Below are positions 58,199 to 64,000 of a stretch of 64,000 bases of DNA, piece by piece (position 1 is the stretch's first letter; each line of letters opens with the position of its first letter). This DNA is from Patescibacteria group bacterium (GTDB taxonomy: Bacteria; Patescibacteriota; JACPGU01): assembly GCA_022703645.1 (NCBI GenBank), contig JAKLDG010000001.1, positions 75,756 through 139,755 of the forward strand, given 5' to 3'. Made by a program: the position numbers and the translations under genes. The notes beneath the pieces are model-generated. The model made no database searches. It saw nothing but the letters and a program-made list of their open reading frames with translations, and had not been told where the DNA came from.

Positions 58199-59179
58199 AT
58201 GAATCTTAACGACCTGCTTCAGCAATTTCTCGAACATATCGAAGTTGAAAAAGGACGAAGCTTCAAGACGCAAGAAAACTACAAGCATTATCTACAAAGG
58301 TTTATCGACTTTGCGGCTGGTTTTGGCGTTAGTGACCCTGCTGCGATCGACCAAGATTTAATTCACCAATATAGACTCTATCTCAATCGTCTTAAAGATA
58401 AAAATTCTAGTGAAACTATCATGAAAGTAACACAGAATTACCATATTATAGCGCTTCGCGCATTTCTAAAATACTTGGCGAAAATAGATGTGAAAACACT
58501 ATCTGCGGAAAAGGTGGAATTGGCAAAACAAGAACAGCGCGAAGTTCATTTTCTTACACCCGAAGAATTGGATAGAATTATGATGGCTCCTTCGCTTTAT
58601 GAAGAAAACCCATTGAAACGTAAAAGAGATGAGGCGATTCTGCAGGTTTTATTTTCTACCGGTTTACGTGTTTCGGAATTAACAGGATTGAACCGCGACC
58701 AAGTTGATCTTACTCGCGGAGAATTTAGCGTTCGCGGAAAAGGTAGCAAACTTCGACTCGTATTTTTATCAAATGAAGCAAAAGAGGCTTTGCAAAAATA
58801 TATTGAAAGGCGCAAGGATAAAAATAAAGCGGTTTTTGTTCCACTGTATAAAGGGAAAAAACAAGCGGAGGAGCAGGAATTAAAATCAGAAAACCCTTCT
58901 TCGCATAAAGCTAAGAAGGGCAAGGAGGTTCGCCTGACGCCTCGATCTGTGCAGAGAATGATCAGCCGATATGCAAAGTTGGCAGGAATTGTGAAAGAAG
59001 TAACGCCGCATACGATGCGCCATTCCTTCGCAACAGATCTGCTCATGAATGGCGCCGATATCCGTTCTGTTCAAACTATGTTGGGACATTCTTCAATAAC
59101 TACGACACAGATCTATACGCATGTGACGAACCAACAGTTGAAGGACGTTCATAAGGCATTTCATAGTAAGAAGAAATAA
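58199..59179 (+). CDS. tyrosine recombinase, XerC/XerD family
   Basis: N-terminal SAM-like domain. The catalytic domain carries R...HTMRHSFAT...LGHSSITTTQIYTHV (the Tyr). A Lys/Glu-rich insert precedes the catalytic core. Confidence 0.8.
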   Translation: MNLNDLLQQFLEHIEVEKGRSFKTQENYKHYLQRFIDFAAGFGVSDPAAIDQDLIHQYRLYLNRLKDKNSSETIMKVTQNYHIIALRAFLKYLAKIDVKTLSAEKVELAKQEQREVHFLTPEELDRIMMAPSLYEENPLKRKRDEAILQVLFSTGLRVSELTGLNRDQVDLTRGEFSVRGKGSKLRLVFLSNEAKEALQKYIERRKDKNKAVFVPLYKGKKQAEEQELKSENPSSHKAKKGKEVRLTPRSVQRMISRYAKLAGIVKEVTPHTMRHSFATDLLMNGADIRSVQTMLGHSSITTTQIYTHVTNQQLKDVHKAFHSKKK

Positions 59180-59214: not shown

Positions 59215-60993
59215 TTACAATGCTTTGGACCAACTGGCGAACGCGTCCCATTCTTCCATCGTGAAGTCGAGCTTATCAATCGCTTCTTTCATACTGAATT
59301 CGAGATTTAGAAAGGTAGTCACGCGGATCTTTTTGAATTTCTTAGGATTCGACTTCCACGTGCCTTTTTTGAAACCGAGCTTTTGAGCGCATGCCTGTTG
59401 AATGATATTCAGCTCATCCCAATTTTTCTGAAAGAATTCGCGGATTCTCGCGCATTTTTCGAATTGGTCTTTCAGATTTTCGGGACTGTTTGCGGTATCG
59501 CATCTTTCAGCTCCTACTCTCAAGTCAGTGTAGTTCAGTGGTGCTGCAGTCGGAGGTTCTTCATCGGTATTTTGTCTAATCAACACTTGCTTTTTTATTT
59601 CAATAGCAGACAGCAGCATTTCGATATCTTTGCGAAAAGCGTCGGCTTCGTCAGAAGTATCTTCCGCGATCTGTAAAAGTATTTCGTAAGCATAATTTTT
59701 TACTGCTGTATTGTCGCCTTTGCTATCATGGATAAGACCCATAAGTTCGAGTCTGAATGATTGAATAATATCCTTATCCAGTTTCGAATTCGCGGTTTCA
59801 TCTGTCGGTATTTCGGCAGGGGCTTCTTCGCTGATTTTAGCTCCTTCATTCAAGATTGCAGTTCTTATATAACCACACCTTAAACGCAGAGCGATAGCCT
59901 CAAATGAAGAGTCATGTTTGATTCCTTCCAGAATCTCAGCGGTCACTTCGAGAATGGTAGCGGGATTATCGGGGTTATTCGTGACGACTATATTGAGTGC
60001 TTTATCAAGCTCCGCAATATTGATATTCAGTGTTGCTGTCTGCTGTTCAGATGCGGTTTCCGGTTGAACGTTTTTTTCTGCTACCGGTTCAAAATAGTCG
60101 ATGAGATGTTTGACGCCTTCAGACCCATTATCTTTAAAGGACTCTTCGATAAGTTTCCTTGCCTGTTCAGTATCTTGAAGAATCATACCGGATTGAAACC
60201 CAATACTTCCATCCTGATAGAATAAGTCCGAGTTACACTTTGCGCCGAGAATCTTTTCCATTGCATGATTGAAGAGCTCTTTGCTCATGTCCGCTATATC
60301 GTACTTTACCGGTGCGGGTTCTTCGATCACGCTACTCAGCGCGTCGAATGCGTCGAGTAGTTCTTTTACTTCCGGAGAATCGTCATTCTGGAAAACAACA
60401 TGGGCTGATTTAATAATTCCCAACAGTACATCTTTTTCGCAATCAGGACGAGGGTTTTTCAGCTCTTCCAGCAAGTTTCTCCATACAACTATCATTTGAG
60501 CTTTGATATCGCCGGAAAGGGCAACAGTCTGCGTGGACCGTGTTGGATCTTCTGAATTACAGATCATAAGTTCCGCGGCAAGGAAGAGCGGAGTGTCGCA
60601 ATCTATACAGAATATATCGTACGATGAGTTTACGCATCCGCAGATTTTACAGATTCCGACAAATTCCATGTTTTTTTCGTATTCTGCGACTTCAAAAAGC
60701 GCTTGGTTGCATTCTTCGCAGAAAACCGCGCCGATCTTGTTTGCCGAACCGCAGAATCTGCATATAACGGCTTCATTCGCTGCCTGTTCTTTGAGGCTTT
60801 CTATCATCGCGCTTATGTTTTCTCTCAGAGTCCAGCTATCTCTACTTACGGACGCGGCTTTTTCCTGAATTTCCTTTCCTTGTTTCAGGTTCATGTACAG
60901 CAGGACCAATCCGATAATTCCGATGAAGATGAGCGCAATGACGCCCCAGTAAATCGTTAACTGGTTTCCAAGTGCAAGAAGATCTGGCATCAT
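59215..60993 (-). CDS. membrane-anchored double zinc-ribbon hypothetical protein
   Basis: N-terminal transmembrane helix, then CRFCGS...CEEC and CKICGC...CIDC zinc ribbons, then a long helical region. Confidence 0.5.
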   Translation of the reverse strand: MMPDLLALGNQLTIYWGVIALIFIGIIGLVLLYMNLKQGKEIQEKAASVSRDSWTLRENISAMIESLKEQAANEAVICRFCGSANKIGAVFCEECNQALFEVAEYEKNMEFVGICKICGCVNSSYDIFCIDCDTPLFLAAELMICNSEDPTRSTQTVALSGDIKAQMIVVWRNLLEELKNPRPDCEKDVLLGIIKSAHVVFQNDDSPEVKELLDAFDALSSVIEEPAPVKYDIADMSKELFNHAMEKILGAKCNSDLFYQDGSIGFQSGMILQDTEQARKLIEESFKDNGSEGVKHLIDYFEPVAEKNVQPETASEQQTATLNINIAELDKALNIVVTNNPDNPATILEVTAEILEGIKHDSSFEAIALRLRCGYIRTAILNEGAKISEEAPAEIPTDETANSKLDKDIIQSFRLELMGLIHDSKGDNTAVKNYAYEILLQIAEDTSDEADAFRKDIEMLLSAIEIKKQVLIRQNTDEEPPTAAPLNYTDLRVGAERCDTANSPENLKDQFEKCARIREFFQKNWDELNIIQQACAQKLGFKKGTWKSNPKKFKKIRVTTFLNLEFSMKEAIDKLDFTMEEWDAFASWSKAL

Positions 60994-61572
60994 AATTCAT
61001 TACCTCGACTTTCGTAGGATTTTTCAGGCCTTGCCTGATTATGAAGAATACAATTATTTTATTTTCACCTTTTTTGCAAAAGGGTTGAACAATGCTAAGA
61101 ATTAAAGTACATTTAATGGGTTAATTATAGAGGTTTTTTACCATGTTGTCAATGATAATCGCATAACAAAGCGGTTTTTAATCTATGTATAGCGATGTAT
61201 CTCCGCAGTATTATGATATATTGCGAGGGGAAATAATGTTTTTTTCAAAGTTAAAAAATGAGCGGAAACTTTATATTGATGGCATTGAAGATGAATAAAA
61301 ATAAAAAAACCGCTTAGTGTAAGCGACGTTTTTATGTCCTTATGGTGATAATGGCTTGAATAAGCAATAATATCAAAAAACTAGACCAGATAGTCTAGTT
61401 TTTTAGTTCATGTTATACCGAAAAATACCAAACAAACAATCATGGGGAGTTCCAGCATGGGAAGGGTAGCTTGCTTTAATGGGGCGGGGAGTGCTTGCTT
61501 CGCTTTATGTCTTTTTTGCTATGATTCTTGTATATTAAGTTCTCCCGTGGCTGGAAAGATTTTGAGATGTTC

Positions 61573-62826
61573 TTATTTCGCCAATAACCACTTCCAAAGA
61601 GGCAGGAAGGTTATTTTCTTGCCGTTGACCTGTTTTTCTTCTTCTCGGCCGTCAAAGACCAATATAGTGCCTTTATTGAGGTTGTATTTGTTCAGTGCTT
61701 CTAGTAATCCATTTATTTCTCTTTCTTTAGTTTCACTATTAGAAACATTGTCAGTCACTTGGATTGCTTCAACTATTTTTCTGCCCTCTTTTAATACAAA
61801 ATCACACTCATATTTATCCTTATGATAGAAAATCTCTTTATTTCTGTTCTTTAGTTCTATAAAAACAAGGTTTTCCAGTAGTTTCCCTTTGTTTTCTGAA
61901 AAAGCGAATGAAACAGCATTGACCAACCCTGTATCTATGGCATAAATCTTTCTATCGTTGATTATTTGCTTTTTTAACGAATAATCATATTTTGGAACGG
62001 AAAAATTGATGTATGATTCTTCCAAATAATCAATATAGCTTTTGACGGTAGAAACGCTATTGAATTCCAATACTTTCTTCAAATTATTAAAGCTGATTAA
62101 GGAAGAGATATTTGATAGCAGGTAAAGAGAAAGCTCTTTAAATGCTTTGGTTTCTTTGATATTAAATCTAATCAAAAGGTCTTTTATAAGAATGTCTTGA
62201 TAGATTTGGCGAAGTTCCGCCTTGTTTTTGCTTTTTACTATTTCAGGAAAACCGCCATATTCAATATACTCCTTTAAATACCTATTCATCAAAGACGATT
62301 CTTCGGTAGTATAATATTTTTTGGTTTCAAAACTTTTATATTTTAATAATTCTTGAAAGCTAAAAGGATAAAGTTCTATTTTTAAGTGCCTGCCAGTTAG
62401 AGAAGTGGCCAATTCCGAGCTTAATAGTTTTGCATTGCTTCCTGTAACGAATATCTTATATCCGTTGTCAAACAATCTTCTGACAAACTTTTCCCATCCA
62501 TAGACATTTTGGATTTCATCAAAGAAGAAAACTTTTTGTTTTCCATAGGCTTCAAGAAATATCTCATACAGAGTGGCAAAACCCTTATTTTCAAAGCCAA
62601 TCAAGCGGTCATCTTCAAAGTTGAGATAATAATATCCTTTATAGTTCTGTGATATTTGCTTGAGCAAGGTGGACTTTCCGCTTCTTCTTACCCCGCTGAT
62701 AACCGATATTTTCTTGTTTTCAAGAAAGCTCTTTGGTACTTCTCGGGGAATATAATCAAACCTTTTTTCAAAGGTTTTTCTTTGGTCTAGCACCACTTGC
62801 TCAATTATCTTTTTATCCAATGCCAT
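61573..62826 (-). CDS. COG1373-type AAA+ ATPase (AAA_14 plus DUF4143 architecture)
   Basis: Walker A GVRRSGKST, Walker B FFFDEIQ and a C-terminal DUF4143-like region. Confidence 0.7.
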   Translation of the reverse strand: MALDKKIIEQVVLDQRKTFEKRFDYIPREVPKSFLENKKISVISGVRRSGKSTLLKQISQNYKGYYYLNFEDDRLIGFENKGFATLYEIFLEAYGKQKVFFFDEIQNVYGWEKFVRRLFDNGYKIFVTGSNAKLLSSELATSLTGRHLKIELYPFSFQELLKYKSFETKKYYTTEESSLMNRYLKEYIEYGGFPEIVKSKNKAELRQIYQDILIKDLLIRFNIKETKAFKELSLYLLSNISSLISFNNLKKVLEFNSVSTVKSYIDYLEESYINFSVPKYDYSLKKQIINDRKIYAIDTGLVNAVSFAFSENKGKLLENLVFIELKNRNKEIFYHKDKYECDFVLKEGRKIVEAIQVTDNVSNSETKEREINGLLEALNKYNLNKGTILVFDGREEEKQVNGKKITFLPLWKWLLAK

Positions 62827-62872
62827 TGTATATTATTGGTTAATAGTATCCAATGCCATTGTATATTATTTT
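62819..62872. repeat. 33-bp tandem duplication spanning the ATPase start codon (CCAATGCCATTGTATATTATT x2)
   Basis: The upstream copy encodes only MALDTINQ-stop. Confidence 0.7.
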
Positions 62873-63070
62873 AACGGCTTTGTCAATATCTACTAATTTT
62901 GCTTAATAAACGCATTTAAAAAACGGTGATTTCAAAAAATTTTCGCAAATTTTTTAAACAATGCTTGATAGTTGGCAAGTAAGTATTTATTATTTTGTTT
63001 GTTTTTATTATAGTACCTTTTCTAATTTCTTAAAATAATTTATACTAGAAAGTGAAATAAAAAATTAGTT

Positions 63071-63757
63071 ATGAACAACAAAAAAATTGAAAAATTTATC
63101 AAGGAGCTTGCCAAACATGAGAGAGAAAAAACTTCTTATCAATTTGATGACTCTAGAAATAGCATTTTAATTACATCTGGACTTCATCTAAATTGGATTG
63201 GCGACTTTTTTTCTAATCCTAAAATAAAATGGGAAGAAAAGGAAATAGCTGTTGAGAAAATAAAATTTACAGGAACTAACCCGAAGATGAATGATATTCT
63301 TTTGAACCAATGCCATCGTTCTCCTAAAGAATTTAGAAAGCTAATCAAGGATAATCCTAAAATCAAAAAAGAATTTGAAAAATATGCTTCCTTTGGCAAT
63401 GAACCAATCCTTGTTAGAAAAGATGAAGATAACAAGGGATATTATAAGGTATTAGATGGTATGCACAGATTTGTTGGAGCTTCATTAAGTAATAAGCCAA
63501 AAATAAAAGTCTGGCTACCAATCAATGAAGATGAGGAACTGCCATATTGTGAACCCCATGTAGTTTATGACCTAATGCGAGGATATATGAGGCATGCAAA
63601 AGATAAAGAAGGGCAAAAAGAATTATACTATGCTCTAAAGCTTCTAAATCGCACTTATGCTAATGTTAATGATTTACTCAAAGGAAGATTAGGTGAGAAA
63701 TGGGTTTTAGATAAAGATGTGCAGAATATAATTAGAAAGGTTCTCAAGGAAAAATAA
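63071..63757 (+). CDS. ParB/Srx-fold (DGQHR-like) nuclease-domain protein
   Basis: YKVLDGMHRFVGA resembles the ParB-like nuclease / DGQHR signature (DGxHR). Confidence 0.45.
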   Translation: MNNKKIEKFIKELAKHEREKTSYQFDDSRNSILITSGLHLNWIGDFFSNPKIKWEEKEIAVEKIKFTGTNPKMNDILLNQCHRSPKEFRKLIKDNPKIKKEFEKYASFGNEPILVRKDEDNKGYYKVLDGMHRFVGASLSNKPKIKVWLPINEDEELPYCEPHVVYDLMRGYMRHAKDKEGQKELYYALKLLNRTYANVNDLLKGRLGEKWVLDKDVQNIIRKVLKEK

Positions 63758-63874
63758 ATTTTGTTCTAAATAGCTAAATCATTGATAATAACAAGCCAGA
63801 TTTGACAAATTGGCTTATTTGTGCTATTATTCTAGTGTATTTAAAAAATGCACATTGAAAAGGAGATGATATTG

Positions 63875-64000
63875 ATGAAAACCAAGTCCATAACCATTGC
63901 GGGGCTCGTGATGATTCTTGCTGGCATTGGGGTAATGGTTTTTTCCCAATGCATGGTAAAAGTGGATGGCAGTACCGCTTTCTGGAATTACAAGTGGGCG
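63875..64000 (+). CDS. hypothetical membrane/secreted protein, N-terminal fragment; gene continues past the window end
   Basis: AAAGGAGA lies 9 nt upstream of the ATG. The product MKTKSITIAGLVMILAGIGVMVFS... has a hydrophobic N-terminus. Confidence 0.45.
   Translation, partial: MKTKSITIAGLVMILAGIGVMVFSQCMVKVDGSTAFWNYKWA

Follow-up and report, generated by a model that had tools for sequence, protein, structure and literature searches.

Does a divergent gene pair in a patescibacterial genome, one gene encoding an AAA+ ATPase and the other a protein with a ParB-like fold, work as a unit, or do two independent genes lie side by side? The question arises in a stretch of 64,000 nucleotides (the window) from a Patescibacteria group bacterium (assembly GCA_022703645.1, contig JAKLDG010000001.1, positions 75,756 to 139,755 of the forward strand), in which an open reading frame (ORF) for 417 amino acids (aa) at 61573..62826 on the minus strand faces away from an ORF for 228 aa at 63071..63757 on the plus strand. 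An earlier note on this DNA, which had placed both ORFs correctly, read them as a possible defence or mobile-element-derived module near a tyrosine recombinase and took a tandem duplication at the ATPase start as a hint of recent rearrangement. We consider it probable that the locus instead holds two independent genes, namely an autoregulated accessory ATPase cassette and a vertically inherited ParB-like gene. The flagged pair is no new defence system, and the original lead is closed. The most useful outcome of the analysis is the architecture of two palindromes 33 bp apart in promoters of the COG1373/PDC-S01 family, which offers a directly testable prediction in an abundant family.

The two divergent genes are independent

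The ATPase and the ParB-like gene do not occur together elsewhere. Among 31 other distinct loci of the ParB-like gene, no ATPase homologue turned up within a distance of ~6 kb (such loci were taken from protein look-ups, 4, and from species-representative genomes, 28), and none of 83 ATPase-homologue loci contained a ParB-like gene (mean total flank, 2.4 kb). The two are not partners; they are independent genes facing away from each other.

The boundaries of the ATPase unit emerged from a sister genome of candidate division CPR3 (contig L001), whose ParB-like protein is 95% identical. This contig shares two blocks of DNA with the window: 62917-63758, which aligns to L001 9874-10688 (87.1% identity), and a downstream housekeeping block of acetyltransferase, NUDIX, HD, and amidase genes (86.0%). 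A local alignment additionally matched window 61512-61565 to L001 9817-9870, 3 nt from the L001 point that matches window 62917. Because these flanking matches lie only 3 nt apart in L001, the intervening 1351 bp (61566..62916, minus strand), comprising promoter, operator-like sites, and ORF, are present here and cleanly absent there. A comparison of presence and absence, which had been suggested for the whole block, therefore separates its two halves, with the ATPase cassette precisely missing from the sister genome and the ParB-like gene retained. The divergence of the ParB-like block from L001 equals that of the housekeeping block, so that vertical descent fits, and the ParB-like gene appears to be a vertically inherited, stand-alone resident gene.

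The ATPase unit is a self-contained accessory cassette of one promoter, two operator-like palindromes, and one ORF, and its presence here reflects either an insertion into the ParB-like upstream region or a loss in the sister genome. Comparison of the occupied with the empty site shows that the gain or loss involved the promoter and the ORF alone. The insertion of the cassette separates the segment 61512..61565, which in L001 directly adjoins the ParB-like block, from the rest of the ParB-like upstream region, of which it is the displaced distal part, a deletion in the sister genome being the alternative. Nucleotide similarity to the loci of the closest ATPase homologues is confined to 61567-62894 for L044 (80%), 61576-62886 for L043, and 61571-62787 for L041, and the surroundings of these homologues are unrelated to those in the window. 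The L041 ATPase lies beside a glycosyltransferase and HicA/HicB (L041:6030-6492), and the L043 ATPase lies beside two HEPN/NTase_sub_bind-MNT pairs (L043:4289-5747). With these closest homologues beside toxin-antitoxin (TA) genes, some family members evidently reside in defence- or TA-rich neighbourhoods, unlike the copy in the window. Just upstream of the cassette in L044 (L044:1-90), a look-alike of a tRNA 3' half (..GGTTCGAGCCCCAC..) was seen; ARAGORN called no tRNA in this interval, where the contig end cuts the sequence.

These comparisons make it very improbable that the ATPase and the ParB/DGQHR-like protein constitute a small two-gene defence or mobile-element module tied to the recombinase. 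The genes are adjacent and divergent, the ATPase matches the PADLOC candidate PDC-S01, GC content is below that of the neighbours, and ParB/Srx-fold proteins such as DndB and DUF262 are found in some defence systems; against all this stand the lack of co-occurrence in either direction, the clean junction in a sister genome that has the ParB-like gene without the ATPase, a ParB-like protein with no PADLOC, DndB, DGQHR, phage, or plasmid match, and a Xer gene whose counterparts in other Patescibacteria are 50% identical.

Downstream of the ParB-like gene, sister genomes differ too (L011:10688-12390 versus L001:10688-15336), one segment carrying a 194-aa hypothetical protein and an APH kinase and the other UCP014422, methyltransferase, HhH-GPD, TPR, and DUF218 genes. 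With variable segments on both sides, the ParB-like gene forms part of a conserved islet. In the sister genome, a 163-aa serine recombinase is encoded upstream of this gene (L001:8883-9470); it has the resolvase catalytic domain only and may be frameshifted because a coding stretch resembling a helix-turn-helix (HTH) (..LTVRDIAKRFNVSHTTILNHINS) follows the called stop.

Paired palindromes at the ATPase promoter

The duplicated ATPase start, which the earlier note had located at 62819..62872, proved to be an exact 24-nt direct repeat (62814-62837 and 62847-62870, 33 nt start to start) that had no counterpart when the window was shuffled 100 times. It overlies a promoter (62858..62886, minus strand; 11/12 in the promoter scan) composed of TTGACA (62886..62881), a 17-nt spacer, and TACAAT (62863..62858). 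Read along the coding strand, TTGACA is followed after 17 nt by TACAAT, which lies inside the distal operator-like copy O1 (62847..62870, minus strand, reading AATAATATACAATGGCATTGGATA) so that O1 overlaps the -10 box; then comes the identical proximal copy O2 (62814..62837, minus strand), which contains the start codon (ATG GCA TTG GAT = M A L D). Each copy is a 19-bp imperfect palindrome with the core TATACAATG-G-CATTGgATA.

The two-copy layout recurs in the closest homologues (84, 79, and 68% protein identity), and the arrangement TTGACA-17-TAC(A/T)(A/C)T is kept in L041, L043, and L044. Compared by eye, the two copies within a locus agree at 24/24, 19/23, 20/23, and 19/23 positions (the window and the three closest homologues), and the copies of L041 agree with those of the window at 14-15/23 (also by eye), below the within-locus values. 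For a wider set, 80 further ATPase-homologue loci (40-62% identity) were fetched and 77 upstream regions were lined up; repeat statistics were based on 76 non-identical promoters (40-84% protein identity), an 18-nt ungapped direct repeat, and dinucleotide shuffles. Many homologue promoters contain a 17-20-bp palindrome twice, with a sequence that varies from one subfamily to another, as exemplified by TTCTCATTGACAATGAGA, TTTGGTCTnnnAGACCAAA, CTATTGnAAATAG, and AGTATATTTTGGCAAAATATACT, with TCTCATTGACAATGAGA as another operator subfamily type. In 31 of the 76 promoters, no more than one of 100 dinucleotide shuffles equalled the best 18-nt repeat. Repeats of at least 15/18 were present in 37% of promoters versus 7% of control regions taken past the stop codon, 0% of those within the gene, and 3% of those far upstream. 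Of the 29 strongest cases, 23 had a spacing of 33 nt, two of 32 nt, three of 23 nt, and one of 38 nt, a pattern with a chance of ~3e-32 under a uniform offset. Identity was 16.0/18 within a locus and 11.5/18 when a copy was compared with its best match at another locus.

As judged from these alignments, the apparent duplication of the start is a family feature consisting of paired operator-like palindromes. The operator reading is drawn from the constant spacing of approximately three helical turns, the cassette-specific sequence, the palindromic symmetry, and the overlap with the core promoter, which together suggest that the palindromes may serve as autoregulatory operators. No description of the paired-palindrome promoter or of the cassette boundaries was found in the open-access literature searched. 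Two further candidates were discarded: a third operator copy inside the ParB-like gene (63307-63319, a 13-mer with one mismatch; within chance, with 4 matches versus 1.8 expected and as many in 10/100 shuffles) and inverted copies of ATGGCATTG near 61279, which have an exact core of only 9 nt and were taken as chance.

Proposed autoregulation and its alternatives

In the mechanism that we propose, the ATPase protein would bind both palindromes, probably by way of its winged-helix segment and in dimeric or higher oligomeric form. With O1 covering the -10 box and the probable transcription start and O2 covering the ATG, the bound ATPase would repress its own promoter and so keep the level of a potentially harmful ATPase-nuclease low; ATP-dependent recognition and cleavage of invading DNA is the common guess for the role of such a protein. 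Because no other gene travels with the cassette, the ATPase would be the most economical binder. A broader form of this proposal, which we advance tentatively and at somewhat less than an even chance, is that PDC-S01 proteins are sequence-specific DNA binders whose promoter-plus-ORF cassettes are self-repressed via two cognate palindromes 33 bp apart, the palindromes diversifying with the protein. If true, this would provide the first mechanistic handle on PDC-S01/COG1373 and would hint that recognition of palindromic DNA belongs to the activity of these proteins.

Several observations count against this explanation of the locus. Only ~40% of the promoters pass the strict ungapped repeat test, and operator positions vary by subfamily, some being centred on the -35 box and +1, and those of the window on the -10 box and the ATG. 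Operator classes do have different helix-3 signatures, but in a Mantel-type test operator similarity followed the divergence of the whole protein, and the winged helix was not singled out as the reader because the partial r was 0.285 for the HTH and 0.25 for the AAA+ part. Binding by the ATPase is a prediction. As for the cassette, its presence here and absence there are also compatible with a deletion in the sister genome; a target-site duplication was not seen at the cassette, and no recombinase lies within the unit. With regard to function, the single PDC-S01 gene assayed in E. coli B was not one of the four candidates conferring protection against T7, T5, or T4 (bioRxiv 10.1101/2024.09.26.614923).

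The outcome of the covariation test, which did not single out the HTH segment, would also suit a host regulator binding the palindromes, or palindromes that are promoter elements in themselves, and the -35 hexamer indeed falls within some subfamily palindromes. We nevertheless find it improbable that the ATPase is not the binder, since the palindromes differ between cassettes and travel with them across phyla and contexts, no conserved gene adjoins the cassette, and a host factor would need to change with every cassette. Somewhat more doubtful still is an action of the repeats on RNA or translation, either by coupling through an 8-codon mini-ORF (MALDTINQ*), the stop of which lies 9 nt before the main ATG, or by an mRNA fold that masks the ATG. 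A mini-ORF of 8 codons ends at the same position in the window, L043, and L041, and no Shine-Dalgarno-like sequence was found before the main ATG; the conserved -10 box, however, overlaps the mini-ORF ATG, which would keep the mini-ORF out of transcripts from this promoter, the corresponding codon in L044 is CTG, and both palindromes of other subfamilies are located 30-90 nt ahead of the ATG, often including the -35 box. That the 24-nt repeat is a functionless recent tandem duplication or slippage product is scarcely credible, despite the 100% identity of its two copies in this genome, given that the 33-nt two-copy layout persists with different sequences down to ~43% protein identity and is enriched over control regions; the idea of a recent rearrangement at the ATPase start falls with it, the same architecture and spacing being present in ~40% of the sampled relatives. 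We therefore retain autoregulation by the ATPase as the preferred, conditional reading of the palindromes.

The ATPase belongs to an unvalidated defence-candidate family

The 417-aa protein is a STAND-like AAA+ NTPase of COG1373 / PADLOC PDC-S01, as indicated by Pfam, PADLOC, and an AF2 model. Its description as an ATPase with a DUF4143 domain was borne out by Pfam matches to PF13173 (AAA_14; 1.1e-38, residues 38-161) and PF13635 (DUF4143; 6.4e-22, residues 216-357). In the PADLOC scan, the model PDLC04787 (PDC-S01) matched the full length of the ATPase (7.3e-117; residues 24-416 versus profile positions 9-408 of 412), the ParB-like protein had no match, and the neighbours had none above noise. 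Of the suggestion that both domain types belong to defence, the half concerning the ATPase stands, as a candidate, and the half concerning the 228-aa protein does not; a defence island is likewise not supported, as other PADLOC-type genes were not found nearby. Sequence matches to nSTAND3 and ATPase_2 were below the Pfam cut-offs, and a sequence search of the PDB with the ATPase returned no match.

The AF2 model (pLDDT 85.8, pTM 0.84) divides the protein into an AAA+ core (38-165), a helical lid (174-220), a winged-helix-like segment (226-296), and a C-terminal domain (299-409). The Walker A motif (G45..K51-S52-T53; 62668..62694, minus strand) has G45, R47, R48, K51, S52, and T53 invariant in the alignment, and the Walker B motif (FFFDE, D103-E104; 62515..62529, minus strand) has F102, D103, and E104 invariant. 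The winged-helix-like segment, the candidate DNA reader (61939..62151, minus strand), is modelled with three helices plus two strands. The C-terminal domain (61600..61932, minus strand) follows an alpha-beta-beta-beta-alpha-beta order in the model and includes the invariant residues Y334, E340, D342, F343, and Q356, E340-C-D342 being encoded at 61801-61809. We describe it as PD-(D/E)xK-like, consistent with this order, the invariant residues, and the published family descriptions (PMC3424549, PMC12988326); the nuclease assignment rests on the family listing in which DUF4143 is a PD-(D/E)XK family (PMC3424549).

In the published description of PDC-S01 (PMC12988326), an ATPase is joined to a PD-(D/E)XK member, and the family ranks fourth in abundance among prokaryotic defence candidates, with ~29,500 instances in bacteria and 10,000 in archaea; it has repeatedly undergone inter-domain transfer, and its validation as a defence system is pending. 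Of the 8000 candidates that our own search scored, 7957 proteins reached E < 1e-30. Named sources place the exact ATPase sequence in Patescibacteria / candidate division CPR3, and relatives of ~60% identity were labelled Moranbacteria, Parcubacteria, Bacteroidales, and Thermoplasmatota. The ATPase of the window is thus a further member of a known, unvalidated defence-candidate family, and a role in defence, although suggested by this membership, is unproven.

The ParB-like protein represents a small Patescibacteria-restricted family

The 228-aa product of 63071..63757 (plus strand) is a ParB/Srx-fold protein of a small family restricted to Patescibacteria, as indicated by the homologue search and an AF2 model. 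Its conserved upstream region (62917..63070, plus strand) starts where the homology to L001 begins, at 62917, and contains a promoter-like site, TTGATA-17-TATTAT, at 62965-62993 (plus strand; promoter scan). We collected 65 homologues of ~225 aa, which, where named, came from CPR3, Uhrbacteria, Falkowbacteria, Terrybacteria, and Patescibacteria, the others being unassigned; the nearest was labelled Patescibacteria / candidate division CPR3. A profile search of 1.84 billion representatives returned no more than 156 clusters at E <= 1e-3; at E <= 1e-30 there were 38. Invariant positions in the family include G37, W42, G68, D129, G130, H132, R133, E161, H163, Y166, and D167, and C81 and C160 are at least 90% conserved.

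The DGMHR motif (residues 129-133; 63455..63469, plus strand), in which D129, G130, H132, and R133 are invariant, lines up with the ParB GERRxR box (TIGR00180 positions 43-82) and with the DGVHR of SbnI (VIDGVHRF). Sequence matches to ParB were weak: TIGR00180 matched residues 111-150 at 3e-4 (20.6 bits, below the cut-off of 58.45), a PDB ParB at 0.04, and a ParB-like PHROG at 0.0035. The protein had no Pfam family (including ParBc) at E <= 0.1 and no PADLOC match, and tblastn against phage and plasmid collections returned no match. The best PDB match of the family profile was SbnI, which was not significant (E = 0.24) and aligned PILV..G.Y.V(I/L)DG(V/M)HRF. With the AF2 model (pLDDT 94.8), Foldseek hits against the PDB were members of the ParB/Srx superfamily throughout (ParB, PadC, Noc, KorB, SbnI, SerK, Srx, and Atu1540), with ~200 aligned columns for ParB, Noc, and KorB and TM-scores, normalised to the ParB-like query, of only ~0.25. 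The ParB/Srx core with an arginine-containing nucleotide-binding motif is real, and by analogy with PadC, ParB, SbnI, and SerK, our best guess is that the protein most likely binds or uses a nucleoside triphosphate (NTP). The fold proposed for this protein in the earlier note thus stands, and its membership in DndB/DGQHR does not, there being no match of that kind in Pfam, NCBIfam, or PADLOC.

In rare cases, members of the family have additional domains. In a Gracilibacteria metagenome-assembled genome (L036:5977-6852, JBKBWQ010000001.1), a ParB-like member shares a single ORF with a C-terminal single-cluster 4Fe-4S ferredoxin domain (Fer4_13, 1.2e-11), with DGMHR decayed to DGMYM; together with the conserved C81 and C160, this fusion hints at a redox link. 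In P0187 (532 aa), a FemAB-family / GNAT domain (~120-293) precedes a full ParB-like domain (308-531), as a fusion or a gene-calling merge. Also in the representative library (P0226-P0333 and P0248/P0251/P0276), a more distant group of ~260-aa proteins without a Pfam family matches the ParB-like profile at ~32-223, and a few giant proteins (1037-3449 aa) contain 3-4 copies of the core motif region. The gene marks a small branch of the ParB/Srx superfamily that is confined to Patescibacteria and has no Pfam model, which is a modest lead into the biology of these reduced bacteria.

Xer recombinase and other neighbours

The tyrosine recombinase and zinc-ribbon protein described upstream of the pair are present. 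The former, at 58199..59179 (plus strand; Pfam Phage_integrase, 4e-42), falls below the equivalog cut-offs for XerD (229.2 versus 329.6), XerC (228.4 versus 335.15), and XerA (215.4 versus 220), and by these profile scores it is a generic Xer-like tyrosine recombinase. Because it has 50%-identical counterparts in other Patescibacteria (L026, L027, and L031), it is probably a housekeeping Xer, which argues against its earlier interpretation as the mark of a mobile element. The zinc-ribbon protein (592 aa; 59215..60993, minus strand) has a weak double zinc-ribbon match (Pfam DZR, 6e-4, below the cut-off) and no PADLOC or PHROG match. A perfect 12/12 sigma-70-type promoter (TTGACA-17-TATAAT) lies ahead of its gene at 61124..61152 (minus strand).

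The neighbours of the ParB-like gene vary (NUDIX, HIT, methyltransferases, glycosyltransferases, and resolvase). When neighbours were clustered across 32 ParB-like loci, only Xer recurred, in 5 distinct loci within 4 kb of the gene, with differing orientations and from 2-3 lineages only; synteny was otherwise lineage-specific. Xer genes near the ParB-like gene were noted in L026, L027, L031, L017, the P0002 contig, and the window itself. The P0002 contig has a tightly spaced row of Xer, a 495-aa gene, and the ParB-like gene, all read in one direction, with an overlap between the last two. This recurrent linkage is suggestive, and the ParB-like protein might conceivably cooperate with Xer in maintaining the chromosome, perhaps as a DNA-binding NTP switch of the ParB/Noc type close to the dimer-resolution site. 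The tight row in P0002 and the ~200 Foldseek columns shared with ParB, Noc, and KorB fit such a partnership. Most loci nevertheless have unrelated neighbours, the Xer-linked loci are confined to those few lineages, the protein has no HTH family match, and the TM-scores are low, all of which leaves the partnership unlikely, though not negligibly so, next to a stand-alone ParB-like gene.

The AT-rich surroundings and bidirectional terminators noted previously were confirmed. GC content was 0.195 in 62917-63070, 0.32 in the ATPase cassette, and 0.31 in the ParB-like ORF, versus 0.378 for the whole window, and GC and GC3 of both genes showed a mild deficit relative to the window mean; no terminus or island boundary signal was found in the GC skew. 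Terminator-like hairpins numbered 9 versus 2.0 +/- 1.5 expected, and two of them, at 61309-61327 and 61374-61405, were called on both strands. The latter, with a 12-14-bp stem and situated outside the ATPase cassette, probably ends the ATPase transcript; the former directly follows an unannotated 37-aa ORF (MYSDVSPQYYDILRGEIMFFSKLKNERKLYIDGIEDE) at 61185..61298 (plus strand). Rfam gave no match for the whole window at the gathering threshold or for 60900-64000 at E <= 1, and a tRNA scan found none.

Comparison with known systems

The ParB-like protein shares only part of its structure with the ParB/Srx superfamily (ParB, Noc, KorB, and PadC; SbnI and SerK; sulfiredoxin), with which it superposes over only ~70-95 residues; its first 60 residues and its C-terminal helices are specific to its own family. 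As to the traits of partition ParB proteins, no HTH family match was obtained, and the only recurring neighbour in the 32 loci was Xer, in a survey that included no search aimed at ParA. In contrast to sulfiredoxin, the protein lacks the catalytic Cys and has GMHR instead of GCHR. With DndB/DGQHR and DUF262 (DGQQR), it has in common a D-G-x-H-R type motif on a ParB/Srx core; DndB/DGQHR models in Pfam, NCBIfam, and PADLOC gave no match at E <= 0.1, and no locus had dnd or dpt neighbours.

The ATPase agrees with PADLOC PDC-S01 in its two Pfam domains, its full-length match to the hidden Markov model, and its membership in a family prone to horizontal transfer, but the copy described here lies outside any defence island, its neighbours being without PADLOC matches above noise. 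It can also be compared with STAND NTPases (Avs, NLR NB-ARC, and CED-4/Apaf-1) and the archaeal ATPase_2 proteins PABY2304 (2qen) and SSO1545 (2fna). Unlike STAND NTPases, the ATPase has no sensor repeat domain, carries its effector-like PD-(D/E)xK domain at the C terminus, and is only 417 aa long.

Autorepressed toxin-antitoxin genes and the controller genes of restriction-modification systems have paired palindromic operators. The ATPase promoter resembles these operators in having two palindromes on the same face of the DNA, over the core promoter of the presumed binder's own gene, with a sequence specific to each variant. It differs from them in that the presumed binder is predicted to be a large ATPase-nuclease rather than a small dedicated repressor.

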